A DNA stretch of 64,000 nucleotides from the NCBI GenBank assembly GCA_021816695.1, contig JAKAXE010000004.1, forward strand, positions 61-64,060. Reading direction: 5' to 3'. The DNA comes from a bacterium. Its GTDB lineage: Bacteria > Chloroflexota > Dormibacteria > Aeolococcales > Bog-877. Positions 36,254-51,128 of this stretch are shown piece by piece; the first letter of the stretch is position 1, and each line of letters starts with the position of its first letter. Both the position numbers and the translations under genes were made by a program. Under the pieces are notes generated by a model. It searched no databases, was not told the origin of the DNA, and saw nothing but the letters and a program-made list of their open reading frames with translations.

Positions 36254-37737
36254 CCGGCCACCCCGATCCGGACGCCTCTCACCAGGATGGGGGCGGCGCC
36301 GTGGGAGACGAACCCCCACTGCTTGGGCTCGCCCTTGCCGCAGGGAAGCCCAAACACCTGGAGGGTCTCGGGGCCTCCGACCGCCTCCACCGATCCCCAG
36401 AACTCGGGGGTCACCCCGCCGTAGGAGGCGTTCCTGTACAGTCGGGTCCGCCGCCCCCGGCGGACCTCCCAGGCCACCTCGGTCCCGAACTGGAAGTTCA
36501 GGCGCTTCTCGTCGATGCTCCAGCTGCGGTCCATGTCCAGGTAGTAGCCGTCCCCCAGCCGTTCCAGGAGGGCGTCGAGGTCCCCCTCCCCCGGCCGGAG
36601 GCCGACGTGGGTGGAGAAGCAGAGGGGCATGAAGCTGTGGCCGTCGGCCCGCATGGCCGCGGTGCTGGACCGCCCGATCCGCTGGGCCGTCTCCCTGGAA
36701 GAGAGGAAGTCGTTGACGATCCCGTTCTCGATCAGGACCGCGGGTCGGGCCGGCTGGCCCTCGTCGTCGAAGGCGAAGGAGCCGCGGGCCCCGGGTGTGG
36801 TGGGGTCGGCGATCATGGTCACCGCTTCTGAGCCGTATCGCATCCGCCCCCGCTCCTCGGCGCGGATGAAGGAGGTGCCGGCAAACCCGGCCTCGTCCCC
36901 GAAGATCCGGTCCAGCTCCAGGGCGTGCCCGCAGGACTCGTGGATCTGCAGCGCGGTCATCGCCGGCCCCAGCACCAGGTCGGCCGTGCCCGCCGCCAGG
37001 ACCGGGGCTCGCAGCAGCGCCCGGGCCTCGTCCGCCACCCTGGGCAGCTCCGCGGGAAGCCGCAGCTCATCGAGGTACTCCCAGCCGGCGGCAGCGGTGT
37101 TGCCGTGAAATGAGTTGGGGTAGGAGCGCCGCTGCACCTCTCCGTCGCGAGCCGCCCAGACCTGGAGCAGCCCCCCGGTCTCCAGCAGCTCCTGGACCTG
37201 CCACGACCCCTCGCTGCTGGCGAAGCATCGGCGCTGGCGCTTGGCGTTGACCCCGGCCACCGCCCGCGTCACCTCCGGGGTGGCGAGCGCCTCCTCCAGA
37301 AGCCCGGCCACCAGCTGGTGCTTGGTGGATGGCGGAACGGCGAACGGGTCCACGATGAACGGCGTCCGGAAGTGGCCGCTGGCCCCCGGCAGAGGATCCA
37401 GGTGCGCCGAGTTCGGGCCCACCTGCGCCTCCGCCATCTCCACGGCGGCGACGGCTGCCTCGATCGCCTGAGAGGCGGGCCCGAGCACCCGGCTGCCGAA
37501 GCCCCAAGCCCCCCGGAGGAGCACCCGGACACCGAGCCCGACCACCTGCTCCAGCCGCCAGTCGGGCTCCCGGCCCGAGGCCGCATACAGCCGCTCCTCC
37601 ACCACCTCCACCAGTCGGGCGTCGGCGTAGGTCGCGCCCCGGCCGAGCGCCAGGTCAACGGCCTCCTGGGCGAGGGCGCGGGCTTCGTCTTCGGAATGCG
37701 CCCATGCCCAAGAGGACGCGGTGGCAATCTGGCTCAA
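36250..37737 (-). CDS. tldD: TldD-family zinc metalloprotease
   Basis: QIHESCGHALE (HExxxH), LPCGKGEP (C-terminal Cys ligand), FAFDDEG; TTG 37737 after SD GGAGGAGG. Confidence 0.9.
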   Translation of the reverse strand: MSQIATASSWAWAHSEDEARALAQEAVDLALGRGATYADARLVEVVEERLYAASGREPDWRLEQVVGLGVRVLLRGAWGFGSRVLGPASQAIEAAVAAVEMAEAQVGPNSAHLDPLPGASGHFRTPFIVDPFAVPPSTKHQLVAGLLEEALATPEVTRAVAGVNAKRQRRCFASSEGSWQVQELLETGGLLQVWAARDGEVQRRSYPNSFHGNTAAAGWEYLDELRLPAELPRVADEARALLRAPVLAAGTADLVLGPAMTALQIHESCGHALELDRIFGDEAGFAGTSFIRAEERGRMRYGSEAVTMIADPTTPGARGSFAFDDEGQPARPAVLIENGIVNDFLSSRETAQRIGRSSTAAMRADGHSFMPLCFSTHVGLRPGEGDLDALLERLGDGYYLDMDRSWSIDEKRLNFQFGTEVAWEVRRGRRTRLYRNASYGGVTPEFWGSVEAVGGPETLQVFGLPCGKGEPKQWGFVSHGAAPILVRGVRIGVAG

Positions 37738-37807
37738 ATCGGGAACTCCTCCTCCCCGCTGTCGACGGGGGCGGGGGGGCGGCCGCCCCGGGCGGCCGCC
37801 CCCGAGG

Positions 37808-39655
37808 TCACTTGGTGTAGTACCAGTCCTGCGGGAAGATGGCGAGCAGGGGGTTGGCGGGAAGGACCCCCTTGAGCTTGCTCTTGACCTCCAGGAGCTG
37901 GTAGTCGGCATTGGGGATCCAGAGCTCCGGAAGCTGCTTGGCGACGTAGGTCTCCCAGGCGAACAGCGCCGACTGTCCGCCCTGAACGGCCGCGTTGGAG
38001 AGCCCCACCTCGGTCTGGTCGCAGTAGCTGCCAGCGTTCAGCGCCCCGCCACAGCGGAAGTAGCCGCCGCCCGGCGGGTAGTAGGGCAGGGTGTAGACCG
38101 CACCGCCCCAGTCGATCATCTGCCAGCTGCAGGCAGCCTGCGAGCTGGTGCAGGGGATGGCGTCCGCGTAGGCGAAGGTGCTGCCCTTGAGGTTGATCTG
38201 GACCCCGGCGTGGCTGGCCGTGGACTTGTAGATCTCCATCTCCGTGAGGCCGGCCGTGTAGTTGTCCTGGTAGATGAGGGTGAAGGACAGCTGGCTGCCC
38301 TTGGCCACCCCGGGGCCGCATTGATTGGATGCGGTGCCGGGGTTCTGACAGCTGTCCACGCCGCCGGGAACGATGCTCCAACCGTGCTGCCGCAGCAGCG
38401 ACTCGGCGGTGCTGATGCTGTACGGGTACGGGTAACCCTGGGCGCTGAGGCTGGGTGCCGTCACCGCCGGGGCGCCGTTGACGACCGGCCCGTAGGTGGG
38501 CACGCCATACCCCACCAGCGCCGTCTTGATCCACTGGGGCTGGTCGACGAGCCGCTCCAGCGCCTGGCGGATGTAGAGCTGATGGAAGAGGGGGCCCGCG
38601 GTCGGGTTGTTGAAGTTGATGAACAGGGAGTTGAAACCGTACACCGGCCAGACGCCGAAGCTGTATCCCTGGTGGGACAGCTCGGTCGTCAGGTTGGAAT
38701 CGCTGGTGGGCAGGTAGCCCACGTCCACCGAGCCCGCCCGGACCGCGTCCACCTCCGCCGTCTCACTGTCGAAGGGCTCGAAGATGAGCTTGGAGATGTG
38801 GGGCTTGTCCGGCCCGCTGTAGCTCGGGTTGGGCTGCATCACGATGTAGCCACTGTTAAGGAAGGTGGTGAGCCGCCACGGCCCATCCACCACCTTCCAC
38901 AGCGGGTTGGTCGCGTAGGTGGCGATGTTCTTCGACTGAGCATCGAGGAAGTTGAAGACGGACTGGGCACCGGCGGTGGTCTGGTCGTAGTTGCCGATGG
39001 CGCCCGAGGAGGACTCCTTGTCCCAGGCGTGCTGGGGCATGGGGGTGATCTGCGCCAGCTCGTTGTAGGTGAACCAGGTCGGGGAGTACGCCTTGTTGAG
39101 GGTGAACGTCAGCTTGTAGGTGCTGTCGATCTTGATCGAGGTGACGTTGTCCGGAAACAGCCCGGGCACGTACGCCGCCCAGTTGTCCTTCTCCGCCCTT
39201 AACTCGTTCATCCAGAAGGTGACGTCCCGGGCGCTCACCGGGGTGCCATCCGACCAGACGTAGTGCTTGAGGGTGATCACCACCTGGGTGTTCCCGTCCT
39301 GGTAGACAGGTGGATAGGCCAGGCTGATCTTGTAGTTGATCGCGGGCGAGGTCCCGGACCCGAACTGATACAGCGGCGGGATCATGAGGTACTCAAACTG
39401 GCTCTGGTACTGCACCGTGAAGTCGGTGGCCGGGTACAGCGGCAGAATCCAGGGCGGGCCGATGCCCGCCGTCTCGGCCACCGTCACCGTTCCCCCGGAG
39501 ACCGGCTTGCCGCTGCCCGAGGCCTGCCCGGAGTTGGTGCTGGCGCAGCCCGCCACCAGCCCGAGCGCCACAAGGCCCGATACCCAGATGGGGCCGGCGG
39601 CCCAGCGCCGGCCGCCTATCCTCATCAACCTGGAAAGCATTCTCATCCCGGTCAC
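37808..39655 (-). CDS. Family-5 (peptide/opine/oligosaccharide) ABC substrate-binding lipoprotein, with no adjacent permease or ATPase
   Basis: Lipobox LVAGC, WSDGTPVSARDVTFW, VDGPWRL, IRQALERLVD; SD TAAGGAGG. Confidence 0.88.
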   Translation of the reverse strand: MTGMRMLSRLMRIGGRRWAAGPIWVSGLVALGLVAGCASTNSGQASGSGKPVSGGTVTVAETAGIGPPWILPLYPATDFTVQYQSQFEYLMIPPLYQFGSGTSPAINYKISLAYPPVYQDGNTQVVITLKHYVWSDGTPVSARDVTFWMNELRAEKDNWAAYVPGLFPDNVTSIKIDSTYKLTFTLNKAYSPTWFTYNELAQITPMPQHAWDKESSSGAIGNYDQTTAGAQSVFNFLDAQSKNIATYATNPLWKVVDGPWRLTTFLNSGYIVMQPNPSYSGPDKPHISKLIFEPFDSETAEVDAVRAGSVDVGYLPTSDSNLTTELSHQGYSFGVWPVYGFNSLFINFNNPTAGPLFHQLYIRQALERLVDQPQWIKTALVGYGVPTYGPVVNGAPAVTAPSLSAQGYPYPYSISTAESLLRQHGWSIVPGGVDSCQNPGTASNQCGPGVAKGSQLSFTLIYQDNYTAGLTEMEIYKSTASHAGVQINLKGSTFAYADAIPCTSSQAACSWQMIDWGGAVYTLPYYPPGGGYFRCGGALNAGSYCDQTEVGLSNAAVQGGQSALFAWETYVAKQLPELWIPNADYQLLEVKSKLKGVLPANPLLAIFPQDWYYTK

Positions 39656-39815: not shown

Positions 39816-40571
39816 TCACTCGCCGCTCACTTCACTGGAGATGTCGCCCCCGGAGGCGCCGGGGGTAGTGTCCGCCCGATGGTCGAGGGGCTCGACGTAC
39901 CCCTTGATCAGGCGGGCGTACGCACCCTCTAGGTGGACCCGGATCATTTCCAGCGCCTTCTCGGTGTCATGGGCGGCCATGGTCTCCACCAGCTCCCCGT
40001 GCTCCCGGTGGCCCACCTCGCTGAAGTCCGGATTCACAAGGTTGCGCGTCAGAAGGAAGCGGAAGATGTGCGAGCGGAGCATGGTCCAGCAGGCGTAGAG
40101 CCGGTCGTGGCGCGCAGCTTGGTACACCAGGTCGTGGAACGCGACGTCCAGCTCGGCATATTCCCGGGGGCTGAGGCGTGCGGCGGCCTCAGGCATTCGG
40201 TTGGCCAGCTCGCGGAGGCGGCCCAGGTCCTCCGGGGTGGCCCGCGCGATGGCCAGCCGCACGGCGAGGCTCTCCAGGCTGGCCCGCAGGGTGTAGACCT
40301 CCTCCACATCCTGTGCCGTGAGCCCCACCACGATGGCGCCGCGATGGCTGCGGATGGCCACCAGCCCCTCGTGGCCCAGCTGGGCAAAGGCGTCCCGCAC
40401 CGGGCTTCGGCTCACCTGCAGCGCCGCTGAGATCTCCGCCTCGCGCAGGTGCTGGCCGGGTTTGAACCTCCCCGTGACGATGGCCTCCCTCAGTCGGTCT
40501 GCCACCTCGTCGGAGAGGACCCGGTGGGGAACCGCGGTCAGGGCTTTGGCTTCGCTGAAGTCGTCTGGCAC
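39816..40571 (-). CDS. GntR-family (FadR/FCD) transcriptional regulator
   Basis: LREAEISAALQVSRSPVRDAFAQLGHEGLV winged HTH; FCD LDVAFHDLV and HREHGELVE; start moved to GTG 40571 because the promoter lies inside the longer track ORF. Confidence 0.93.
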   Translation of the reverse strand: MPDDFSEAKALTAVPHRVLSDEVADRLREAIVTGRFKPGQHLREAEISAALQVSRSPVRDAFAQLGHEGLVAIRSHRGAIVVGLTAQDVEEVYTLRASLESLAVRLAIARATPEDLGRLRELANRMPEAAARLSPREYAELDVAFHDLVYQAARHDRLYACWTMLRSHIFRFLLTRNLVNPDFSEVGHREHGELVETMAAHDTEKALEMIRVHLEGAYARLIKGYVEPLDHRADTTPGASGGDISSEVSGE

Positions 40572-40581
40572 GGTGGATGTA

Positions 40582-40610
40582 ATATTGTCGACAATCCATC
40601 TACCTGTCAA
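40582..40610 (-). promoter_or_regulatory. Promoter TTGACA-N17-CAATAT with palindromic GntR-type operator ATTGTCGACAAT (40584-40595)
   Basis: Perfect 12-bp palindrome overlapping the -10; same architecture as the 41657-41685 site. Confidence 0.85.
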
Positions 40611-40708
40611 GTCCCCGGACACGCGATCGGATGAGGATCCGCCCCGAGGTGCCGCGGCGCCGTCCCCCCCAGGGCCATCGCCGAGTTCCCCGGGCAGTCC
40701 GGTCGACG

Positions 40709-41467
40709 TCATGCGCGCGCCGCCTCGGTCCGCAGGCTGATGGCCTCAGACAGCTGGAAGGCGTCGAACCGCAGCCCCGTGGCCTGCTCCGCATCCAGGG
40801 CGGCGAGGTAGGCGAAGGCGGGGGCCAGGCGGCTGGGTGAGATCATCCGCTCCCGCATCTCGGGGGTGTAGTGCCCCCACGACATGGGAGTGTCGATCGG
40901 CGCTCCTGTGGTCGCGGTGTTCACCGCGATGTTGAACTCGGCGCCCTCAATACTGAGCACCTTCATGAGCCCTTCCTGGCCGTGCTTAGCGGGGGTGTAG
41001 GCGGACTCCAGGGGGAAGCCCCGCAGGGCGGAGCCGGAGGAGATGAAGACGATGCTTCCGTGGCCCTGAGCGATCATCGGCTCCCAGACCCCCTTGGCCA
41101 AGACGAAGGCCCCCTGCAGGATGATGTCCAGCTCCCGGCGCCAGCCCTCGAAGGTCCACTCCCGGAACGGGCGCGGCGTCAGGACGGCGGCGTCGTGGAT
41201 CAAGGCCCGCGGCGGCCCCACCTGACGCACGGCCTCGGCCACGGCGGTCTGGGTCCCGGCGGCATCGGCCAGATCTGCCACCACCGGGAGCGCCTGGATC
41301 CCGAGCGCCAGGAGTTCGTGAGCCAGCGAGGCCACCTTGCCCTCCTGCACGTCGAAAAGGACCAGGTTCATCCCCCGTGCCGCCAGCTCCCGGGCGATCG
41401 CGTTTCCCAGGCCGTCTGCGGCGCCGCTGAGGAAGCACCACTGGCCGCGGATGTCGTGCAGACCCAT
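40709..41467 (-). CDS. SDR-family oxidoreductase
   Basis: SGAADGLG, HDAA, SSGSA, YTPAKHG; SD GGGAGG before ATG 41467. Confidence 0.88.
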   Translation of the reverse strand: MGLHDIRGQWCFLSGAADGLGNAIARELAARGMNLVLFDVQEGKVASLAHELLALGIQALPVVADLADAAGTQTAVAEAVRQVGPPRALIHDAAVLTPRPFREWTFEGWRRELDIILQGAFVLAKGVWEPMIAQGHGSIVFISSGSALRGFPLESAYTPAKHGQEGLMKVLSIEGAEFNIAVNTATTGAPIDTPMSWGHYTPEMRERMISPSRLAPAFAYLAALDAEQATGLRFDAFQLSEAISLRTEAARA

Positions 41468-41656
41468 TAGCTCGCCTCCCAGTTCGGGCGGGGTTGGCCA
41501 CCGCCGCTGTCCACCATGGGCGGGCGCCCCAGCTGCCACCCGGAGCGGAGCGCCGGGTCCGAGGTCCCCGTGTCCAAGGAACCCGCGCGGGCGTCCCTTC
41601 CCGGGGGGCGGGCGGCGGCGTTGGCGTGCTGGCGATGCTCAATCACGGTGTACCAC

Positions 41657-41685
41657 ATATTGTCGACAATCATCAGCTGTGTCAA
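41657..41685 (-). promoter_or_regulatory. Promoter TTGACA-N17-CAATAT with operator ATTGTCGACAAT (41659-41670)
   Basis: Exact second copy of the palindrome and promoter geometry, upstream of the SDR. Confidence 0.85.
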
Positions 41686-41710
41686 GCCCCTCTGAGCGCG
41701 TCCCTGAGGC

Positions 41711-42868
41711 TCATGGGAGCGGCTCGGATCGGACCTCGGTCCAGGACCGGGAGCGGTGCGAGGCCTCGACCGCGTTGATCACCTCCTGCACCGCCGCCCC
41801 CTGGGCGAAGTCGCCCTGGTTGTCATCCCGGCCTGAGGTGATCTCCTCCACGAAGCTGCGGATCAGGTTGCCGTAGCAGGTCTCCTCCCAGCCGTGACCG
41901 GTCTCGTGCTGGGGCGGGAAGAACTCCTCGGGGATGGGTAGGCGCCTGAACTCCACCTGGTCGGCGGTGGCCCCCCAGAGGCGCTGCCACTCGCCGTTCT
42001 CCTCGACGATCCGGCAGATCAGGGCCCCGCGGTCGCCGTACAGCCGGGCTTCCACGCCGGGGTAGTTGCCCACGGTGACATAGCTGCTTTGGATCGTCCC
42101 CAGAGCCCCGTTGGCGAACTTGGCGATGAAGACGTCGCCGTCATCCAGGTTGATCGGCTCCCGGGCGCTGTCGAGATTGGTGCGGCGGCGCTCCGGTACG
42201 AAGTTGCGCAGCACTCCCACCGTCTCCTTGATGCCGGACCCGGTGAGCATCAGCCCGATGTCGATGATGGGAGCTCCATAGCCCTCGAGGCTGGAGACCG
42301 TGATCGCCTCCTCCCCCGGCTCCCAGCCGCCCACCTGGTCGTCGGCGGGGGCGGCGAGGAGCCGCTTGTCGGCTGGATTGTCCGGGTCCAGCCACTGGCT
42401 GTTCTGCTCGTAGCCGTTGAAGACGAAGGGGCGGCCGCACCACCCCTGGGCCACCAGATGGGCCATGTAGGAGATGGCCGGCGCGTAGCGGAAGGTGAGC
42501 CCGACCTTGGTCTTCAGACCCCGGCGCCGCGCGATCTGCGCCGCCCTCCAGACATCCTCCGCCCGATGGGCCACCGGCTTCTCGGAGAGGCAGTGCTTGC
42601 CCGCCTCCAGGGAGGCGAACACCAAGGGGTCGTGCTCGTCCCGGGTGCAGACGTCCACCACGTCGATGTCGTCCCGGGCCAGCACCTCACGGTAGTCGGC
42701 GGAGATCCCATCAGCCCCGAACTGGGCGGCGGCGGCGCTGGCCAGCTCCTGGTTGAGGTCACAGACCACGGCCAGCCTTACTCCCGGGCACCTTTGCCAG
42801 CCGGGCAGGTGGGCCCGCTGCGACCACCTCCCGGCACCGATGACTGCCACCCGCAGCTCGTCCGCCAT
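41711..42868 (-). CDS. Gfo/Idh/MocA-family oxidoreductase (paralog of 46647-47765)
   Basis: GAGRWS, LSEKP, FNGYEQNSQWLDP, SSLEGYGAPIID. Confidence 0.88.
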   Translation of the reverse strand: MADELRVAVIGAGRWSQRAHLPGWQRCPGVRLAVVCDLNQELASAAAAQFGADGISADYREVLARDDIDVVDVCTRDEHDPLVFASLEAGKHCLSEKPVAHRAEDVWRAAQIARRRGLKTKVGLTFRYAPAISYMAHLVAQGWCGRPFVFNGYEQNSQWLDPDNPADKRLLAAPADDQVGGWEPGEEAITVSSLEGYGAPIIDIGLMLTGSGIKETVGVLRNFVPERRRTNLDSAREPINLDDGDVFIAKFANGALGTIQSSYVTVGNYPGVEARLYGDRGALICRIVEENGEWQRLWGATADQVEFRRLPIPEEFFPPQHETGHGWEETCYGNLIRSFVEEITSGRDDNQGDFAQGAAVQEVINAVEASHRSRSWTEVRSEPLP

Positions 42869-42873
42869 CTACC

Positions 42874-43866
42874 TCACCTCCCTGATTCTCTGGAAGCGGC
42901 CGCCCGAACCCACTCGAGCGCCTGGGCCGTGGGAATCGAGTCGTCGATCGCCAGGTGCCGGGGGCTGGCTCCCTCCCTCAGCACTGCGTGGATGTGCCGG
43001 AGCAGCGGGGCGAAGGTGGGCTCGTCGGTCATCAACCGCTCCCTCTCGCCTGGGCGCCCGGCGACACGCAGCTCGAAGGTGTCATGGGCACCGGGATGAA
43101 AGGGGTCGGTGAGCTCCAGAGAGCCCTCGGTGCCCAGGAGCCGAGTGGTCGTGTCCCTCGCCCGGGAGAGACCGCTGCTGAAGAGGAGGCGGAGCCCTCC
43201 ACCGTACTCGAGGAGGCCACAGGTCTCCAGGTCAACCCCGGAAGGGGCCGCGGTGGCGGAAACCAGGGCGCGCCCGGGAACCTGCCGGAAAAGGAGTGCG
43301 GCCAGGTGGACGGGGTAGCAGCCCACGTCGTTGAGCGCACCTCCGGCCAGCTCCGGGCTCCAGCGGATGTTATCCGGCCGGCGGACCGGGAAGTGGAAGT
43401 GGCTCACCACCTCCCTGAGCTCTCCGATCTCCCCCCCGGAGATCAGCTCCTCGGCCCTCAGGTACTGCCGGTGGAAGGGGAAGGCGAAGGCCTCCCACAG
43501 TGGGGCTCGGGCCCCCCGGGCCAGGGCCACCAGCTCCTCCACCTCGGCCAGGTCGACGCCCAGCGGTTTCTCGCAGAGCACCGCCTTGCCCGCTCGCAGC
43601 GCCGCCCCGGCCCACTCCACGTGAACGGTGTTGGGTAGGGCCACGTAGACCGCGTCGACCTCGTCGGTACCGATCGCCCCCTCATAGTCGGAGATCCGGC
43701 ACTCCACCTCCTCGCGAGCCAGCAGCTCGGCGGCTCGCCGGCTGTCCCGGCTGCCCACGACCACCACCTCACCGCCGCCGGCGGCCCGCAGCGAGGGCAG
43801 GAAGTTGGCCCTGAAGATGTTGGCGGCGCCGAGAACCCCCCAGCGGACCGATGCCGGCTCAGCCAT
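42874..43866 (-). CDS. Gfo/Idh/MocA-family oxidoreductase (GFOR/aldose dehydrogenase-like, Tyr type)
   Basis: WGVLGAANI, VYVALPNTVH, LCEKP, GGALNDVGCYP. Confidence 0.9.
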   Translation of the reverse strand: MAEPASVRWGVLGAANIFRANFLPSLRAAGGGEVVVVGSRDSRRAAELLAREEVECRISDYEGAIGTDEVDAVYVALPNTVHVEWAGAALRAGKAVLCEKPLGVDLAEVEELVALARGARAPLWEAFAFPFHRQYLRAEELISGGEIGELREVVSHFHFPVRRPDNIRWSPELAGGALNDVGCYPVHLAALLFRQVPGRALVSATAAPSGVDLETCGLLEYGGGLRLLFSSGLSRARDTTTRLLGTEGSLELTDPFHPGAHDTFELRVAGRPGERERLMTDEPTFAPLLRHIHAVLREGASPRHLAIDDSIPTAQALEWVRAAASRESGR

Positions 43867-44746
43867 TCAGCCCCTCCTCCGTCCCCAGGGAGAGCAGCTC
43901 AGCCAGGTTGGCCCCGGGGTCCACTGCCAGGGCGAGCTTCCCCTCGCGGCCGGAGAGGAGGACGGTGAGCCCCAGGCCGTGCCCCGGCAGACGGCTGGCC
44001 CCGTGGGACACGACGCCCACCACCACCGAGCCCGGGCGATATCCGCTGATGTAGGCCGCGTCCCAGTCCCGGACCGCAACCAGGTCACCCAGGCGCGCCT
44101 GGGCCAGCTCCGGGATCGTCTCCAGCAGGGAGGGGGGAGTCTGCAGCTCCCAGGAGGTGGCGGCGGCCACCCGCCCGGCCCCCATCCCGACCGCCTCCGG
44201 GGGCAGCTCCAGCCTCACCCGGACCTCCAACCCGTCCCCCCTGGGCTCCGGGGCCCAGGCTGCCCAGAGCTCGGGCCCCAGGCTGTGAGCCACCACGGCC
44301 GGGGAGGGGCACGGCCGGAGGCCGCGGCCGATCGCCTCAATCGCCACCTGGTCTCCGGGGGCGAGCACCTCCAGGGCAGCGGCCGGGAGGTCGACCAGCA
44401 CCTCCTGGAAGCGCTGGAACTCCTCGTGCTTCCCGGTCACCACGCCCTCGGCGCCGGCGGCCGCCCCGGTTCGGACCCTGGCCCGGTTGCCCACACAGGC
44501 GAAGAGGTTCAGGGCCCGGTTGGCCGCCACGTCCGGATGGGCGATGCTCGCCCCGGGCTGGACCCGATCCGCCTCCCAACCGAAGGCGGGCATCCCGACC
44601 CGCACGTTGTAACGGACCCCCTGGCAGCCCACCGGCACGAACGCTCGGCCCTCAAAGTCGGTGAGGTAGGGCGAGGACTCCATCTCCGGCTGGCTCACCC
44701 ACCCCACCAGCATGGTTCGCACCAGACGCGGGGAGTCCACGGTCAT
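43859..44746 (-). CDS. DUF4438-like protein, copy B
   Basis: Aligns by eye with copy A: YNVRVG, QPGAS, ACVGN, VTGKH, GDLVAV, GVVSHG..PGHGLG; ATGA coupling. Confidence 0.75.
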   Translation of the reverse strand: MTVDSPRLVRTMLVGWVSQPEMESSPYLTDFEGRAFVPVGCQGVRYNVRVGMPAFGWEADRVQPGASIAHPDVAANRALNLFACVGNRARVRTGAAAGAEGVVTGKHEEFQRFQEVLVDLPAAALEVLAPGDQVAIEAIGRGLRPCPSPAVVAHSLGPELWAAWAPEPRGDGLEVRVRLELPPEAVGMGAGRVAAATSWELQTPPSLLETIPELAQARLGDLVAVRDWDAAYISGYRPGSVVVGVVSHGASRLPGHGLGLTVLLSGREGKLALAVDPGANLAELLSLGTEEGLNG

Positions 44747-45609
44747 CGGGCCAGCTCCAAAAGGTTGGCCAGATTGCGGCCCGGCCCCGGGTGGTAGGAG
44801 AGAAGCTCCCGTCGGCCGCTGAGCAGGGTGACCACCCCGACCCCGTGCCCCGGGCTGGGGCCGAGAGCGTGGACCACCACCCCCACGGCCGAGTACCGGG
44901 GATCGTAGCGGCGGCCGAAGCGGTGGTCCTGGCCGGGCATGCCGACGAGGTCCCCCACCCTCAGCCCCTCCAGTCCCAGCCGGCGGACAGTCTCGCGGTC
45001 GTGCAGCATCACGTCGCAATTGGCCCACTCGCAGTCCATCCCCAGTCCCGCGCCCATCACCTCGGGGGTGAGCTCCGCGGCCACGGCCACCGAAATGGCC
45101 CCCGGACCGGTGAGCTCCAATCCCAGGCGGTTCAGGAGGTGCGGCGAGCAGTTCCTGCAGGCGACCTCGGGAGCGTCCAGGATGGCCAGCCCCTGGCCAC
45201 TGGCCCGCACCAGGAGGCGGTCTCCGGGGAGGATCTGCTCCAGGGCCTCCTGGGGGAAGTCGATCAGCACGTAGGCGTGCTTGCCGGCCACAATTCCCCG
45301 GGAGCCCCGCGCCGCCCCGCTGAGCACCTGGACGGGATTGCCCAGGCAGGCCAGGACCTGGAAGGCGAGGTTGGCTGACTCCCCCTCGGCCTCCGCCGAC
45401 ACCCCCGCTTCGCCATGGTCGCAGGCGAAGTCGAACACCGGGGACCCCACCCGGATGTCCGGGGTCACCCCGGACATGCCAGGCAGGATCCCGGGCAGAT
45501 CGTCCCGGTCCACGGCGTAGGTGCCGGGGTGGCGAGGGTAGCTGACTCTTCCCAGTAGCCCCACCTGCACCAGCATCTCCTCGTTGGTGCGGAGAAGAGC
45601 GGGCGGCAT
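44743..45609 (-). CDS. DUF4438-like protein (Thermotoga TM1086 family), copy A
   Basis: LRTNEEMLV, DHGEAGVS, ACLGN, GSRGIVAGKH, LRVGDLV, GVVVHA..PGHGVGV match my recollection of the family. Confidence 0.8.
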   Translation of the reverse strand: MPPALLRTNEEMLVQVGLLGRVSYPRHPGTYAVDRDDLPGILPGMSGVTPDIRVGSPVFDFACDHGEAGVSAEAEGESANLAFQVLACLGNPVQVLSGAARGSRGIVAGKHAYVLIDFPQEALEQILPGDRLLVRASGQGLAILDAPEVACRNCSPHLLNRLGLELTGPGAISVAVAAELTPEVMGAGLGMDCEWANCDVMLHDRETVRRLGLEGLRVGDLVGMPGQDHRFGRRYDPRYSAVGVVVHALGPSPGHGVGVVTLLSGRRELLSYHPGPGRNLANLLELAR

Positions 45610-46643
45610 CAGTAGAGACGGTCCTTGCGCAGCACGTTCAGGAGTTCCGCCCCGTGCCGGTACCGCTCCAGGTTCTCGCTGAAGAGCTGGGCCAGAAGCT
45701 GGTTCTCACCGGCCACCGTGCTCATGGAGTGTGGCGTGACCAGGACGTTGGCAAGGTCCCACAGTGGGCTCCCCGGCGGGAGCGGCTCCTCCCGGAAGAC
45801 ATCCAGGGCGGCCCCGCGAAGCCTGCCCTCCCGAAGCGCTGCGGTGAGGGCGTCCTCGTCCACCACGGTGCCTCGGGCCAGGTTCACCAGCACCGCCGAG
45901 TGGGGCAGTAGGGAGAGCCGCGCTCCCGAGATGAGCCCCTCGGTCTCGTCGGTGTGGGGCATGGCCAGGACCAGGAAGTCGGCCTCAGGCAGGGCGCTCT
46001 CCAGCTCCGCCACCTCGAGCAGCCGGTCGACGCCGGACGAGGCCGCCGTCCTGCCGTCCAGGGAGCGCACCACCCCCGTGGTTCGCGCCCCCAGGGCCCT
46101 GGCCAGGGTCGCCACCTCCCGGCCGATGCTGCCCAGCCCGACGATGACCACCTCCTGGCCCGCCACCAGGCGGCCGCTGCGTCGCGCCCACTGGTGGAGC
46201 CGTTGGTCGGCGAGGATCTCCGGCAGGTCGCGGTTGAAGTAGATCATGGCGAAGATGGCGAACTCCGCCAGCGCCCGCCCATGGACTCCCCGGGCGGTGG
46301 TCACCACCACCTTCGCACTCTGGTCCAGCCCCACCCGGCGAACGAACTGTCCGACCCCCGCCGAGGTGGCCTGGATCCAGCGGAGATTGGGGAGATGGGC
46401 CAGCTCGGTGTGCAGGGCAGGCGGCCCAAAGTCGAACATCACCTCCGCCCGGGAGAGCAGCGTACGCCAGCGGTCGAGTTCCTCCCCCTGGGCCCCGGGC
46501 ATACGGTGGTGGCCGGGGTACTGGGGGGTGGCGATGAGGTCCTCGGGGTACTCGAAGGTGTACTCCGGATGGGACCGCCGCAGGCGCTCCACCAGCTCCG
46601 GCTCCAGGGGGGTGGTGAACACCACCAGGCGGTCCACTGGCAT
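45609..46643 (-). CDS. D-isomer-specific 2-hydroxyacid dehydrogenase
   Basis: SAGV, VGLGSIG, NLARG, LDVFREEPL, VTPH (R/E/H triad). Confidence 0.92.
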   Translation of the reverse strand: MPVDRLVVFTTPLEPELVERLRRSHPEYTFEYPEDLIATPQYPGHHRMPGAQGEELDRWRTLLSRAEVMFDFGPPALHTELAHLPNLRWIQATSAGVGQFVRRVGLDQSAKVVVTTARGVHGRALAEFAIFAMIYFNRDLPEILADQRLHQWARRSGRLVAGQEVVIVGLGSIGREVATLARALGARTTGVVRSLDGRTAASSGVDRLLEVAELESALPEADFLVLAMPHTDETEGLISGARLSLLPHSAVLVNLARGTVVDEDALTAALREGRLRGAALDVFREEPLPPGSPLWDLANVLVTPHSMSTVAGENQLLAQLFSENLERYRHGAELLNVLRKDRLY

Positions 46644-46646
46644 CGC

Positions 46647-47765
46647 TCAGCCCTCCAGGGGGAGCTGAACCCAGCCGTGGCGGCGGTGGGACAGCTCGAC
46701 GGCATTGATCACCTCCTGCACCCGGGCGGCGGCCAGGAAGTCGGCCTGCGCCGGAAGGTCGGGGTCGGCGATCTCACTGACGAAGGCGGAGATCAGGTTG
46801 GCGTAGAAGGCGGTGTCCCAGGGCTCGGTGAGACCGCCCCCGGGTGGGTACAGCCGCTCCGGAACCTCAAGGCTGCGGAACTCCACCTGGTCCCGGCGGG
46901 CGCCGTAGAGCCGCTCACACACCCCCTCCTCCTCCACCAGCCGGCAGATCAGGGCACCCTCGGTGCCGTACAGCCGCGCCTCCAAGCCGGGGTAGTTGCC
47001 CACCGTGACATAGCTGCTCTGGATGGTGCCGATGGCGCCGTTGGCGAAGCGGCAGAGGAAGGCGTCGGCGTCGTCGATCGGCAGCCGCACCGGGACCTGG
47101 GATCCCGGTACCAGGCGCTCGGGGACGAGATTGGCCAGCTGACCCACCACCTCCTCGAGCTCGGAGCCCACGAACCAGAGGGCGAGGTCGATGATCGGGG
47201 CCCCGTAACCCTCCAGGGAGCTCACCTGGATGTCGGCTCCGGCTCCCGGATCCCCCTCGCCGGCCCGGATGGGGGTCATGGGGTCGAGGAACTGGGAGTT
47301 CTGCTCGAAGCCGTTGAAGACCAGGGGCCGTCCGACGTACCCCTCGGCGATCAGCTCGCGCATGCGCATCATCGCGGGGCTGAACCGGAAGGTGAAGCCC
47401 ACCTTGGTGCGGAGCCCGCGGGAGAGCGCCAGCTCCCCCGCGTCCCGGGTGCGGGCCCACTCCCGGTGCACCGGTTTCTCGCAGAGGACGTGCCTCCGGG
47501 ACTCGAGGCCGGCCATGGCGCTCAGGAAGTGAGCCGGCCCCCAGGTGACCACGTCCACAACCTGGACCTCGGGGTCGGCTAGCAGCTCGGCCTCCGAGGA
47601 GTAGGCCCTGGAGCCGGGAGCCATGGCTGAGAGAGCACGGGCTCGATCCTGGTCCAGGTCGTACACCCCGACCACCCGAGCCCGCGGGTCCCGCAACCAG
47701 CCGGGAAGGTGGGCGCGCTGAGCCCAGCGTCCCGCCCCCACGATCGCCGCCCCCAGCTCTGCCAA
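46647..47765 (-). CDS. Gfo/Idh/MocA-family oxidoreductase (paralog of 41711-42868)
   Basis: GAGRWA, LCEKP, FNGFEQNSQFLDP, SSLEGYGAPIID; TTG 47765 after SD GGAGGGG. Confidence 0.88.
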   Translation of the reverse strand: MAELGAAIVGAGRWAQRAHLPGWLRDPRARVVGVYDLDQDRARALSAMAPGSRAYSSEAELLADPEVQVVDVVTWGPAHFLSAMAGLESRRHVLCEKPVHREWARTRDAGELALSRGLRTKVGFTFRFSPAMMRMRELIAEGYVGRPLVFNGFEQNSQFLDPMTPIRAGEGDPGAGADIQVSSLEGYGAPIIDLALWFVGSELEEVVGQLANLVPERLVPGSQVPVRLPIDDADAFLCRFANGAIGTIQSSYVTVGNYPGLEARLYGTEGALICRLVEEEGVCERLYGARRDQVEFRSLEVPERLYPPGGGLTEPWDTAFYANLISAFVSEIADPDLPAQADFLAAARVQEVINAVELSHRRHGWVQLPLEG

Positions 47766-47814
47766 CTGCTCCCCTCCAACACCGGGCCGGACCCGTCTGA
47801 GCGTGATTGGAGAA

Positions 47815-47829
47815 AGTATATTGTCGACC
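47815..47829 (-). promoter_or_regulatory. Degenerate GntR box (ATATTGTCGACC) adjoining a TATACT -10 hexamer at the head of the oxidoreductase operon
   Basis: ATTGTCGAC at 47820-47828 matches 9 of 12 nt of the perfect boxes; no clear -35. Confidence 0.6.
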
Positions 47830-47873
47830 GAGCCCACGCGCCCACGCGGGTCAGCCGAGATGACGACACCGGG

Positions 47874-48881
47874 TCACCCCGAAGGGGACGGGGTGGTGGA
47901 GTACCGGAGCGGGGCGCAAGCCGCCGTGGACGCCGCGCAGGTCACGAAGTCCGTGACCGGGGGTTGGTTGGACACAGAGAAGACCAGGACCGGGACGAGG
48001 AAGCCGGCGCTGGCCACCATCCCCAGGCTCGCCCCCGAGATCAGCACCACGGTGCTCGTGGCGTTGGGGCTGGGAGAGGGAAAGGGCTGCCCGGAGGAGT
48101 CCAGAAGGTAGGAGCCCGGTGCCAGGAGGCCCTGGTTCAGATCCTGGATCATGAGATCGGGAGTCGTGGCAGGGTAGGCGGCCAGCGGGCCGGTGATCGG
48201 CGGGGGTACGGTGCCCGAGAGGCCCACCAGGGACAGCTGCTCCCGGTAGTTGGCGGCCACGTCGGCGTACACCTCCTGGGGCTGACCGCTGATGTCTACC
48301 AGCGGGTACCCGCTCACCGCCCACTCGAAGAAGACCCGGCGGTCGGCGGCGTTGACGACGCTCAGGGAGGGCAGGGGGAGCAGGCTCTCATGGGGGTAGG
48401 GGAGGTGGCGGGTGGCGAGGAATTGGGAGACGAAGGCGTCGGCGGCCGCCACCGAGGGGGTCGCCCCCGTCTCGTCCACCGGGGTGTTGGGGTGGAAGTT
48501 GAAGAGCTGGTACCCCGTCGGCGAGGTGAGCTGGTATCCGGAGGTGGCGCCAAGGTTGTAGGAGAGGCCGGCGCCGGTGTTGACGGCCGGCCCGGGGACC
48601 TCCAGGGCGGTCACCAGGTCCTGGAGGGCGGTCAGGGGATCCTGCGCCGTCTGGGCGGCGGGAACATGGCGGGGCATCTGCGGCAGCCGGCCCTGGACCA
48701 GGAACGGGGGCTGAAGGTCAAGAGGGGCGGCGACCTCTCCCCCCAGAGGCAGCACCCCCAGGGGAAGTGGCGGGGTGGGAGTGGGGCTCACCTCGGGATG
48801 GGGATGGTGATGCGGCGCGACGGAGCCACAGCCGGCCAGCAGCAGCAACGCCAGCGCCGCGGCCGGGATGAGCGTTCTCAC
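47874..48881 (-). CDS. Hypothetical lipoprotein
   Basis: Hydrophobic signal with lipobox LLLLAGC, His/Pro-rich linker; no family recognised. Confidence 0.65.
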   Translation of the reverse strand: MRTLIPAAALALLLLAGCGSVAPHHHPHPEVSPTPTPPLPLGVLPLGGEVAAPLDLQPPFLVQGRLPQMPRHVPAAQTAQDPLTALQDLVTALEVPGPAVNTGAGLSYNLGATSGYQLTSPTGYQLFNFHPNTPVDETGATPSVAAADAFVSQFLATRHLPYPHESLLPLPSLSVVNAADRRVFFEWAVSGYPLVDISGQPQEVYADVAANYREQLSLVGLSGTVPPPITGPLAAYPATTPDLMIQDLNQGLLAPGSYLLDSSGQPFPSPSPNATSTVVLISGASLGMVASAGFLVPVLVFSVSNQPPVTDFVTCAASTAACAPLRYSTTPSPSG

Positions 48882-48900
48882 GCCCTCACAATGCCAGACC

Positions 48901-50199
48901 ATGGACTACCGTGAGTCGCTGGCGGCGCTGGCCGCATCCAGCCGGCCGGGCATGCGCCTCGGCCTGGACTCCACCAGGGCCCTCTGCCGGGAATTGGGTG
49001 ACCCTCAGGACCAGCTCACAGGAGTCCTGGTGGCGGGCACCAACGGTAAGGGCTCGGTCTGCGCCCTGGTCGCGGCCATGGCCAGGGCTGCCGGGCTGCG
49101 CGTGGCACTCCTCACCAAGCCCCATCTCACCAGCTACCGGGAGCGGGTCCAGCTGGGGGAGCGCCCGGTCGCGGAGGAGGAGTTCGCCCGCCTGGCAGCC
49201 CAAGCCCTGGAGGCCGCCCGCCGAGGGGGGGTGGACGCCACCCACCACGAACTCCTGACGGCGATGGGGTTTCTCGCCGCAAGGGAGTGGGGTGCCGAGG
49301 TCACCGTGTGTGAGGTGGGGCTGGGAGGGCGGCTGGACGCCACCAACGTCTGGGACGGCGGGGTGGCGGTCGTGGTCTCGGTGGGGCTGGATCACCAGGC
49401 CCAGCTGGGCGACACCGTGGCCCAGATCGCCGGCGAGAAGGCGGCGATCTTCAAGCCGGGTGACCTGGCCATCTCCGGGGCCCTGGGGGAGGCCCGGCCG
49501 GTGGTGCGGGCGGCCGCCGCAGGGGTGGGCGCGGAGCTCTGGCAGCTCGGAGAGGGGATCGAATACGCCTGGGAGGCGGCGGGACTGCGGGTCCGGACCC
49601 CGGCCCGGGAGCTGGGCGAACTGGAACTGGGGGTGACCGGCCAGGTGCAGGGGGCCAACGCCGCCGTGGCCGTGGCCGCCACGGACGGCCTGGGCCGGCT
49701 GCTGGGAGCGGAGATCGGTGAGGGAGCGGTCCGGCAGGGATTGCTGGGGGTCCGCTGGCCGGGACGGCTGGAGGAGGTGGCCACCTCCCCCACCGTGCTG
49801 GTGGACGCGGCTCACAACCCGGCCGCCGTCGAGGCGGTCCTGGGGGAGCTGCGGGCAGCCACCGGGGGCCGGCGGGCGGTGCTGCTGTTCGGGTCCATGG
49901 GCGACCACGACCACTCAGGGATGCTGGCCCGGCTCTCGTCCCTGCCCCTCTGGGCGGCGGTCTTCACCAGGGCCGACGCCATCCGGGCGGTGGAGCCCGA
50001 GGTCCTGGCCCGCGAGTGGCCCGGGAGATCGGAGCGCCTGGTGCCGGTGGCGGCGGCGCTCTCCCGGGCACGGGAGCTGGCCGGTCCCGAGGGGGCGGTG
50101 ATCGCCCTCGGTTCGATCTACCTGGTCGGAGAGGTCATGGCCGAACTGGGAATCGGCCTCCCGCCCGATCCCAAGGTGGCCTGGCGGCCCGCCTACTGA
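48901..50199 (+). CDS. folC: Folylpolyglutamate synthase/dihydrofolate synthase
   Basis: VAGTNGKGS, TKPHLTSYRER, EVGLGGRLDATN, WPGRLE, DAAHNP, GSIYLVGE. Confidence 0.95.
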   Translation: MDYRESLAALAASSRPGMRLGLDSTRALCRELGDPQDQLTGVLVAGTNGKGSVCALVAAMARAAGLRVALLTKPHLTSYRERVQLGERPVAEEEFARLAAQALEAARRGGVDATHHELLTAMGFLAAREWGAEVTVCEVGLGGRLDATNVWDGGVAVVVSVGLDHQAQLGDTVAQIAGEKAAIFKPGDLAISGALGEARPVVRAAAAGVGAELWQLGEGIEYAWEAAGLRVRTPARELGELELGVTGQVQGANAAVAVAATDGLGRLLGAEIGEGAVRQGLLGVRWPGRLEEVATSPTVLVDAAHNPAAVEAVLGELRAATGGRRAVLLFGSMGDHDHSGMLARLSSLPLWAAVFTRADAIRAVEPEVLAREWPGRSERLVPVAAALSRARELAGPEGAVIALGSIYLVGEVMAELGIGLPPDPKVAWRPAY

Positions 50200-50223: not shown

Positions 50224-50871
50224 TCAGACGGGGAGCGGGGCGGCCTCCGCCAGCGCCCGCCGGCAGAGCTGGGTGATCTCCTCCCACCTCTCCTCCCGCA
50301 GGAGGCCGGGCCGGAAGAGGTCGTTGGTCAACCCCACCACCCGGACCCCGGCGGCGAGGTACTCGGTGACGTCCCCGATCCCCACCATCCCGCTGACCCA
50401 GAGGGGCACCTCGGGCATCGGCCCCCGGACGGCGCGGATGTACTCGGGCCCGCCCAGGGGGTTGGCCGGGAACACCTTGACCAGACCCGCCCCCAGCTCC
50501 ATCGCCCGGGCGATCTCGGTGGGGGTGCTGGCCCCCATCACCAGCAGGACCCCGGCCTGCCGGGCCACCTCGGCCACCTCGGGGACCAGGTACGGGGTGA
50601 CCAGGTATTCGGCTCCAGCCCCGAGCGCGGCCTCGGCCAGCTCAGCGCTGGTGATCGTCCCGCCACCGAAGTGGCAGCTCGAGCCGAACTCCTTCCGCAG
50701 GCGGGCGATGGTCTTGAACGCCCCCGGGGTGCCCGAGGTGACCTCAACCGACCCGACCCCCGCCCGAGCCGCCGCCTCCGCCCCGCGATACGCCTGCTCC
50801 CCGTCGGACCAGCGCATGACCGCTGCCAGGCGGGTCGGGAAGTAGGTGGCGATCTGGTCGGGCTGGGTCAT
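50224..50871 (-). CDS. eda: KDPG/KHG aldolase family protein
   Basis: VEVT (catalytic Glu), GGGTI, TPTEI, VKVFPA (Schiff-base Lys), GGPEYIRAVRGPMP; SD AAGGAG. Confidence 0.85.
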   Translation of the reverse strand: MTQPDQIATYFPTRLAAVMRWSDGEQAYRGAEAAARAGVGSVEVTSGTPGAFKTIARLRKEFGSSCHFGGGTITSAELAEAALGAGAEYLVTPYLVPEVAEVARQAGVLLVMGASTPTEIARAMELGAGLVKVFPANPLGGPEYIRAVRGPMPEVPLWVSGMVGIGDVTEYLAAGVRVVGLTNDLFRPGLLREERWEEITQLCRRALAEAAPLPV

Positions 50872-51128
50872 CAGGTGGCTCTCCTTCATCTGCGGGGGGC
50901 TGCGCCGGCTCAGAGGCCGACCGGCCATGGCGGTGCTTCGCCGGAGCTGGCGGAGCCGGACGTGAACTGGATCCCGGAGCCCAGTATGGCGCGGGGCGCT
51001 GGATCACTTCAAGGGAAGCTGGCCGTGGGCGCGGCTCCTGAACGGATCCGACGGCTCGCCCGCCACCGCCGGAGTCGCCCGTCCCCTTCGAACCGGTGGG
51101 TCCCACCCCACCGGGAGCCGCGGCATGA

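Follow-up and report, generated by a model that had tools for sequence, protein, structure and literature searches.

The 64,000-nucleotide stretch of DNA analyzed here (the window) is part of contig C22 of a 2.49-Mb, 89% complete metagenome-assembled genome from an uncultured soil bacterium (Dormibacterota); the G+C content of the window is approximately 70%. At 41711-47765 it carries a six-gene operon in which two adjacent genes of the DUF4438 family, DUF4438-A and DUF4438-B, stand among a gene for a D-isomer-specific 2-hydroxyacid dehydrogenase (HADH) and three genes of the Gfo/Idh/MocA type (Gfo-A, Gfo-B and Gfo-C). Our favored reading, which we hold tentatively (probability of roughly 0.4), is that this operon belongs to a catabolic regulon that would be repressed by a GntR/FCD protein and would act on an imported small compound, with DUF4438-A/B forming a heteromeric, metal-dependent non-redox enzyme beside the Gfo trio. 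The substrate would most likely be a peptide- or amide-linked conjugate possessing secondary-alcohol and/or 2-hydroxyacid groups. Gene families were assigned by Pfam, curated equivalogs were checked against the NCBIfam cut-offs, and the relatives used for comparison are exclusively uncultured genomes.

The region extends exactly from the stop codon of Gfo-C to the TTG start of Gfo-A, and all six genes are located on the reverse strand. In transcriptional order they specify Gfo-A (46647-47765; PF01408 and PF22725, the start codon following the Shine-Dalgarno sequence GGAGG, with an EKP motif and of the LEGYGAP subtype); HADH (45609-46643; PF02826, 2-Hacid_dh_C, 169.5 bits); DUF4438-A (44743-45609); DUF4438-B (43859-44746), the ATG of which overlaps the stop codon of A by 4 nt; Gfo-B (42874-43866; EKP and a D..Y motif, DVGCY); and Gfo-C (41711-42868; LEGYGAP type). 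The successive junctions measure +3, -1, -4, -8 and +5 nt. Pfam supports each of the gene calls made in the initial annotation, as well as the tight coupling described there. The same is true of its remark that the operon lacks a kinase, dehydratase or isomerase: Pfam and NCBIfam scans reveal no such domain among the operon proteins, no aldolase domain, and no other recognizable non-redox enzyme. Every protein of the cluster scores below the curated NCBIfam equivalog cut-offs, and none could be matched to a characterized family. The best NCBIfam score of HADH, for instance, is 212 bits against a cut-off of 400, and among solved structures it is closest to the Haloferax D-2-hydroxyacid dehydrogenase 5MH5. 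This protein contains the motifs GLGSIG, NLARG, DVFREEP and TPH, which include the Arg/Glu/His triad; cofactor and catalytic motifs are likewise retained in Gfo-B and in the SDR protein encoded downstream.

DUF4438-A and DUF4438-B each possess both domains of the family, PF14505 and PF20999, with scores of 128.1 and 90.9 bits for A and 116.5 and 80.9 bits for B (cut-offs 24.9 and 27 bits, respectively), which confirms the original family assignment. That the family lacks an assigned function, as first stated, also stands. Literature matches to DUF4438 or TM1086 comprised C. elegans strain names, a crystallization-methods paper and a typographical error for another family, with no functional paper among them; no NCBIfam model exists for DUF4438, and TM1086 of Thermotoga maritima is its sole structural relative. 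DUF4438-A matches TM1086 (PDB 3DCL and 3N99) at the sequence level with an E-value of 4e-49, and its AlphaFold2 model (mean predicted local distance difference test score 86.6) aligns with 3DCL in Foldseek with a TM-score of 0.90 and an E-value of 5e-31; beyond TM1086, nothing in the PDB was returned below an E-value of 0.07. The likeness consists of the shared two-domain architecture (PF14505 plus PF20999), and DUF4438-A keeps all of the residues conserved in the single-copy clade, where the Thermotogae-type proteins belong. TM1086-type genes are single-copy and lie beside EamA or MFS transporter genes, whereas the window holds two ancient paralogues within a dehydrogenase operon. A resemblance of DUF4438 to the ribosomal L2 barrel, indicated by phmmer, was at chance level, and a tblastn search of plasmids with DUF4438-A gave no match.

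Searched with a family profile, 1.8 billion representative proteins yielded only 917 DUF4438 clusters, from which we conclude that the family is small. Among 79 loci drawn from many phyla, the gene occurs as a tandem pair in 58 and as a single copy in 21. In a phylogenetic tree the first-of-pair, the second-of-pair and the single copies each form a clean clade, and the three clades have parallel topologies; the A and B proteins of the window fall into the first-of-pair and second-of-pair clades, respectively, and in matching subclades. Such a clean three-way tree with matching A and B subclades points to one ancient duplication, after which the copies co-evolved. Single and first copies across phyla retain 14 polar residues (D64, H65, E67, S71, N91, H111, D117, D130, D199, D220, D228, R233, H247 and H255), and all 14 are present in DUF4438-A. 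Second-of-pair copies replace 8 of the 14, while DUF4438-B of the window replaces four, H, E, D and R having given way to R61, Q63, E200 and S234, respectively. A natural fusion is also known to us (P0001; L116:865-2775), a 636-residue protein, encoded on a contig of insufficient length to show its gene neighborhood, with a signal-peptide-like N-terminus and two DUF4438 modules. Module 1 reads GDRATFG and has lost the DH.E motif, which module 2 keeps (ADHVEPDV...GHGPG). Each of the two modules has its nearest relatives in the single-copy clade; the fusion therefore arose by an independent duplication. Taken together, the tandem pairing, the three-clade tree, the asymmetric retention of residues and a fusion with the same live/degenerate pattern suggest that DUF4438-A and DUF4438-B form a hetero-oligomer in which A would be the active subunit and B a partly degenerate partner. 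The Asp/His/Glu set of A would be the ancestral one and is probably a metal site.

These features also bear on whether the pair is an enzyme at all, or instead a hetero-oligomer whose role beside the dehydrogenases is one of binding, scaffolding, metal handling or regulation. The columns invariant across A and B are mostly glycines, the fold is composed of small beta-barrels with no enzymatic relative, and the crystals of TM1086, with 5 and 30 chains, suggest a large oligomer. A non-enzymatic role is nevertheless quite unlikely, since single and first copies across phyla strictly keep the 14 polar residues, four His and several Asp/Glu among them, and it is exactly these that B loses, as is the case for catalytic/non-catalytic subunit pairs. 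The two genes are, in addition, translationally coupled in enzyme operons, usually at the head.

The regulatory sequences of the window connect the operon with a wider set of genes. The perfect palindrome ATTGTCGACAAT occurs in exactly two copies in the 2.49-Mb genome, where 0.01 would be expected from base composition, and both copies are in the window (40584-40595 and 41659-41670). As a putative operator it lies across the spacer and -10 region of two reverse-strand promoters of the form TTGACA-N17-CAATAT, one for the SDR gene (41650-41690) and one for gntR (40575-40611). The SDR protein (40709-41466, reverse; PF00106) has the motifs GAADGLG, SSGS and YTPAK and probably starts at the ATG at 41466, following GGGAGG; the GntR/FCD regulator (39816-40571, reverse; PF00392 and PF07729) probably starts at the GTG at 40571, directly after its promoter. 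Downstream on the same strand are the genes for a family-5 solute-binding lipoprotein (SBP5; 37808-39655; PF00496, lipobox LVAGC) and a TldD plus PmbA/TldE pair (34904-37911; PF19289 in both, HESCGH and CGKG only in TldD); because the listed open reading frames overlap, the true start of TldD must be downstream of 37911. Ahead of Gfo-A, a reverse-strand promoter region (47809-47840) contains the half-site GGTCGACAAT (at 47820) abutting a -10-like CAATAT/TATACT, and this half-site is a predicted degenerate version of the operator. In other genera the matching position ahead of Gfo-A has a full or near-full operator, which is TTTGTCGACAAT at loci L024 and L028, and the position of the gntR operator is kept in L024, L028 and L032.

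Elsewhere in the genome, contig C91 contains a one-mismatch operator, AATGTCGACAAT, immediately after a TTGACA-N17-TAGACT promoter and approximately 40 nt before a second SBP5 gene. This locus comprises SBP5 (621 residues), DppB and DppC (C91:11494-15711; L114:5994-10211), behind which lies a further SDR gene (L114:10391-11170). The second SBP5 is 41% identical to that of the window. Given this operator-led SBP5-DppBC-SDR locus, the apparently orphan SBP5 of the window would have permeases under the same control; Dpp-type ATPase genes are present only on contig C76, without an operator. A protein with GntR and FCD domains and a palindrome with a GT..AC core over promoters are features of GntR/FadR-type regulons, and both are present. 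The predicted common operator would govern the SDR promoter, the gntR promoter (with SBP5, TldD and PmbA downstream) and the SBP5-DppBC-SDR locus of C91. The "shared boxes" of the initial annotation are therefore real, being exact palindromes over the SDR and gntR promoters. The unit delimited there (the six-gene operon, SDR and GntR) is sound as far as it goes, but the regulon appears larger, taking in two SBP5 genes, DppBC, a second SDR and TldD/PmbA. Two-mismatch matches to the operator elsewhere in the genome either fall within open reading frames or adjoin unrelated genes, such as a TetR regulator gene and a transketolase-like one, and were not counted as part of the regulon; a radical-SAM gene on contig C30 with two weak boxes was dropped on the same grounds.

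The arrangement is conserved beyond chance. Of 41 related genomes, 13 contain PF14505, in every case in two neighboring genes. By tblastn, three other genera of the bacterial family have the order GfoA-HADH-DUFA-DUFB-GfoB-GfoC-GntR-SBP5-TldD-PmbA, with protein identities of 50-76%, and a fourth genus has the same parts, rearranged. The gene combination, which could have proved peculiar to this genome, therefore recurs. Twin Gfo genes are present in 11 of the 13 genomes with the DUF4438 pair versus none of the 28 without it (Fisher p = 2.5e-8). A second type of cluster exists within the same bacterial family (L023:1674-13164 of genome G016, and L022 of G010), with no Gfo gene near the DUF4438 pair. 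This type consists of two amidohydrolases, Ldh_2, a weak and a strong class I/II aminotransferase, HADH, DUF-A, DUF-B, SDR and GntR, together with a divergent DegT-type aminotransferase, and it is adjoined by an IS110 transposase. The two types were found together in none of the genomes searched. HADH and SDR are present in both, which makes them the constant neighbors of the DUF4438 pair in Dormibacterota, and HADH is immediately beside the pair in each.

To place the operon in a broader context, the neighbors of the 79 DUF4438 loci were clustered and representatives were scanned against Pfam. Two-armed islands of some 20 genes, headed by the pair, are seen in Chloroflexota, Gemmatimonadota, Alphaproteobacteria and Acidobacteriota. 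The first arm contains GntR, an SDR-type epimerase, Gfo, SBP5, DppBC, a 473-residue protein, a further Gfo and an aminotransferase; the second contains DUF-A, DUF-B, VOC, Ldh_2, two aminotransferases, AstE/AspA, M20, an amidohydrolase, M14 and M24, with M32 in some. Across the 58 paired loci, Gfo occurs in 45, Ldh_2 or HADH in 49, SBP5 in 47 and a peptidase or amidohydrolase in 43, each of these being absent from all 21 single-copy loci, where the DUF4438 gene follows EamA or MFS transporter genes and precedes unrelated sugar or ThiI genes. The pair is thus regularly accompanied by a 2-hydroxyacid dehydrogenase, a Dpp-type importer, aminotransferases, and peptidases or amidohydrolases. The Chloroflexota and Gemmatimonadota islands (L052-L112), for which no published description was found, share with the window the A/B order, GntR/FCD, the Dpp importer, Gfo, a 2-hydroxyacid-type dehydrogenase and amide hydrolases. 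They differ in possessing Ldh_2, VOC, a live/dead aminotransferase pair, an SDR-type epimerase, M14/M20/M24/M32 peptidases and Gfo proteins that keep the catalytic His, whereas the window has D-2-hydroxyacid dehydrogenase, three other Gfo proteins (two of them LEGYGAP), SDR and TldD/E. The 473-residue protein (cluster c16; L067:16515-17936 and 29 other loci) is a conserved cytoplasmic protein of the Chloroflexota and Gemmatimonadota islands with no PDB relative. It could not be used as evidence for a glycan, its GHL10 match being sub-threshold (20 bits) and its amylase matches at chance level.

It is this distribution that shapes our view of the substrate. The presence of Ldh_2 or D-2-hydroxyacid dehydrogenase in 49 of the 58 paired loci, together with the adjacency of HADH in both Dormibacterota types, links the pair to 2-hydroxyacids. 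The frequency of SBP5 and of peptidases or amidohydrolases at the same loci provides the link to peptides, as do the orthologues of Gfo-C and Gfo-B, which lie in clusters with DUF885, M19, M14, AstE, amidohydrolase and Dpp genes. Because peptidases, amidohydrolases, aminotransferases, HADH and the Dpp importer persist, a peptide or amide conjugate is likelier than a plain sugar, cyclitol or sugar acid, and a setting of sugar, cyclitol or sugar-acid catabolism, named in the initial annotation as typical of such dehydrogenases, is not favored by the 58 paired loci. In the favored scheme, TldD/E would trim the peptide part of the imported molecule, and the Gfo trio would oxidize and then re-reduce its hydroxyls. 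DUF4438-A/B would perform a non-redox step, as a C-O or C-N lyase, a hydratase or a hydrolase, on a 2-oxo or 2-hydroxy acid intermediate that the neighboring dehydrogenases would make or remove. The inducer would probably be a carboxylate intermediate, which regulators of the FCD type commonly respond to.

All three Gfo proteins consist of a Rossmann domain (PF01408) and a C-terminal alpha/beta domain and possess the EKP motif. Their active sites are not alike: the canonical Asp-x3-His/Tyr pair is present in Gfo-B (D-V-G-C-Y) but not in Gfo-A or Gfo-C, which are 52% identical to one another and in which the canonical G-D-x-G-x-H block reads L-E-G-Y-G-A-P, with Gly for Asp and Pro for His. The closest solved structures to Gfo-B are 4HAD, the sugar 3-ketoreductase KijD10 and 1,5-anhydro-D-fructose reductase, and those to Gfo-C are the uncharacterized 4H3V, levoglucosan dehydrogenase 6A3F and DgpA. 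The LEGYGAP subfamily is about 60% identical between Dormibacterota, Gemmatimonadota and Chloroflexota, and no characterization of it was found in the literature. In Gemmatimonadota and Chloroflexota a LEGYGAP homologue of Gfo-C is followed by a Gfo-B-like partner of 331 residues (L117, L119 and L121-L123); the identities of these orthologues are 58-61% for Gfo-C and 35-38% for Gfo-B, and the clusters contain no DUF4438 gene. Present instead are DUF885, SBP5, DppBC(DF), SDR, Amidohydro_1, AstE/AspA and GntR/FCD, along with Asp/Glu racemase and M19 or M14 peptidases. These DUF885-Dpp-GfoC-GfoB clusters (L117-L123) have in common with the window the LEGYGAP Gfo-C, the Gfo-B-like partner, SDR, SBP5/DppBC and GntR/FCD. 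They lack both DUF4438 and D-2-hydroxyacid dehydrogenase, their non-redox genes being DUF885, Amidohydro_1, AstE/AspA, M19 and Asp/Glu racemase. DUF885 is a member of the HExxH Peptidase_MA clan (PMC12572635), and the literature yielded no functional study of it.

Since each also exists alone, the operon of the window may be regarded as the junction of two modules. Module 1 would be D-2-hydroxyacid dehydrogenase with DUF4438-A/B (plus SDR), and module 2 the two LEGYGAP Gfo proteins with the KijD10-like Gfo-B, SDR, a Dpp-type importer and a peptidase. Both modules are, by gene content, tied to peptide-type import and amide hydrolases. This affects the original proposal that DUF4438 supplies the missing non-redox step. 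In an operon without another recognizable non-redox enzyme the proposal is still reasonable, but it is weakened by the occurrence of Gfo-C and Gfo-B orthologues without DUF4438, and of DUF4438 pairs without these Gfo proteins.

The company kept by the Gfo orthologues raises the question of whether the pathway is one of amino acids and peptides throughout. The LEGYGAP Gfo proteins, rather than being alcohol dehydrogenases, would then oxidize the amine or hydroxy-acid center of an unusual amino acid, such as a D- or hydroxylated one, released from an imported peptide. The cyclic imine or 2-oxo acid so formed would be converted by DUF4438-A/B, with HADH and SDR completing the route. The alcohol-dehydrogenase acid/base pair is indeed lost from Gfo-A and Gfo-C; Asp/Glu racemase, AstE/AspA, amidohydrolase, M19 dipeptidase and DUF885 are encoded beside the Gfo orthologues; and in other phyla Ldh_2, a family that includes imine reductases, and aminotransferases follow the DUF4438 pair. 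We know of no Gfo/Idh/MocA member that acts on amino acids, however, and Gfo-B has a D..Y site of the sugar-ketoreductase type. Hints of a sugar-like moiety come furthermore from the DegT-type (keto-sugar) aminotransferase in L023 and from the SDR-type epimerase and weak GHL10-like protein of the Chloroflexota islands. A purely amino-acid route is accordingly unlikely.

A carbohydrate or cyclitol "3-keto" route merits more attention, though we consider it, too, rather unlikely. Here, Gfo-A and Gfo-C would oxidize C3, the DUF4438 pair would take the place of a TIM-barrel eliminase/hydratase, and Gfo-B would reduce the 3-keto sugar. The nearest published precedent is the levoglucosan route of Bacillus smithii, in which LgdA, LgdB1, LgdB2 and LgdC carry out oxidation, elimination, hydration and reduction (PMC7676230). 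The operon order, namely dehydrogenase, two paralogous non-redox proteins and Gfo reductase, mirrors that of LgdA-LgdB1-LgdB2-LgdC (PMC7676230). The Lgd proteins and the DgpA/B/C C-glycoside system have Gfo dehydrogenases at both ends, two non-redox proteins between them and no kinase, and their oxidize-eliminate-reduce logic would explain an operon composed almost wholly of dehydrogenases. Among characterized structures Gfo-C is closest to LgdA and DgpA, and Gfo-B to sugar 3-ketoreductase and 1,5-anhydrofructose reductase; twin Gfo genes and the DUF4438 pair co-occur across genomes; and the operon has no TIM-barrel lyase.

On closer comparison the likeness is remote. The levoglucosan dehydrogenase model NF052479 scores 75-107 against a cut-off of 650 bits, and the BT_2158 and BT_2159 families score 25-39 against 650-750 bits. 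Gfo-A and Gfo-C have Pro where the THVID motif of LgdA has its catalytic His. The Lgd/Dgp eliminase and hydratase are TIM barrels resembling sugar-phosphate isomerase/xylose isomerase, whereas the window has DUF4438 in that position, and Pfam finds no such barrel in the operon or the regulon. The Lgd/Dgp importer is a sugar-type ABC transporter, while the binding proteins of the window regulon are SBP_bac_5 with OppC_N/BPD_transp_1 permeases, and not of the sugar-type family 1. Membership in the Lgd system, judged from these sequence comparisons, thus fails on each testable feature, i.e., equivalog scores, TIM barrel, importer type and catalytic His. Against a 3-keto route are also the Gfo-C and Gfo-B orthologues in peptidase-rich clusters without DUF4438 and the DUF4438 pairs without nearby Gfo in L022 and L023. 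Such a route does not account for TldD/E, the M14, M20, M24 and M32 peptidases or the aminotransferases, and no sugar kinase or glycosidase is present in the regulon.

TldD/E is best known from the maturation of microcin B17, which brings into consideration a biosynthetic or maturation cluster, for example for a modified peptide or a metallophore. In E. coli the HExxxH motif and the C-terminal CGKG are present in TldD, with PmbA/TldE a motif-less partner, and the same is seen in the window, where the pair shares a transcript, or at any rate an orientation, with the GntR-controlled importer gene. The dehydrogenases and aminotransferases could serve biosynthesis equally, and the Chloroflexota-type SBP5 resembles NikA and metallophore binders. 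TldD/E is an optional part of the cluster, syntenic in L024, L025 and L028 and absent from L030, L032 and the Chloroflexota islands. A biosynthetic function is highly improbable for a regulon with two substrate-binding lipoproteins, importer permeases, GntR/FCD repressor control and predicted operators over its promoters, in which Pfam detects no ligase, nonribosomal peptide synthetase, precursor-peptide gene or exporter. Only 13 of the 41 relatives possess the cluster, as would be expected of an accessory nutrient trait.

Several points weigh against the catabolic regulon for a peptide- or amide-linked conjugate that we favor. With the canonical Asp/His pair gone, dehydrogenase activity of Gfo-A and Gfo-C is an assumption, and for each of the three Gfo proteins the closest characterized relatives have sugars or cyclitols, rather than peptides, as substrates. 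The two-module view draws on about ten loci for module 2. Single-copy DUF4438 genes are located beside EamA or MFS transporters without a catabolic context, and the basic chemistry of the family may therefore be unrelated to 2-oxo acids. There is also a bolder form of this proposal, which we regard as a long shot. DUF4438-A/B would found a new class of all-beta-barrel metallo-enzymes, which break a C-O or C-N linkage other than a peptide bond once the neighboring dehydrogenases have activated the substrate, and together with the LEGYGAP Gfo proteins would enable a kinase-independent, redox-driven recycling of necromass conjugates. Candidate linkages may include the lactyl ether in muramyl peptides, the bond between sugar and amine in glycated peptides of the Amadori type, and the secondary amine in N-(carboxyalkyl) amino acids of the opine or metallophore type. 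If true, this would concern the oligotrophic soil phyla Dormibacterota, Actinomycetota, Chloroflexota and Gemmatimonadota.

The structure of a DUF4438 protein has been available since 2008, and the paired form is central to catabolic islands in at least six phyla. The window presents a compact version, with six coupled genes, one defined palindrome and two binding proteins amenable to ligand screens. As its enzyme set is unlike that of the better-sampled Chloroflexota islands, the comparison narrows the needs of the pair to a 2-hydroxyacid dehydrogenase and Dpp-type import. It also exposes a second uncharacterized and highly conserved protein type, the LEGYGAP subfamily of Gfo/Idh/MocA without the catalytic His. 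Once the function of either is solved, thousands of environmental genes could be annotated, and the way in which slow-growing bacteria of soil exploit peptide-linked organic matter might come to light.

Two further genes lie in the vicinity of the operon. A KDPG/KHG aldolase gene (50224-50928, reverse strand), three genes upstream, is syntenic only within its own genus (L026, L027 and L029); it has no operator and is probably outside the regulon. Directly upstream of the Gfo-A promoter is an open reading frame (47874-48902, reverse strand) for a Pro-rich, lipoprotein-like protein of 342 residues with the lipobox LLAGC, which has no Pfam or NCBIfam match and is kept only within the genus, at 84-91% identity. 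Its 5′ end overlaps that of a divergent FolC-like gene (48868-50199, forward strand) by 35 nt, and one of the two annotated starts is therefore probably wrong.

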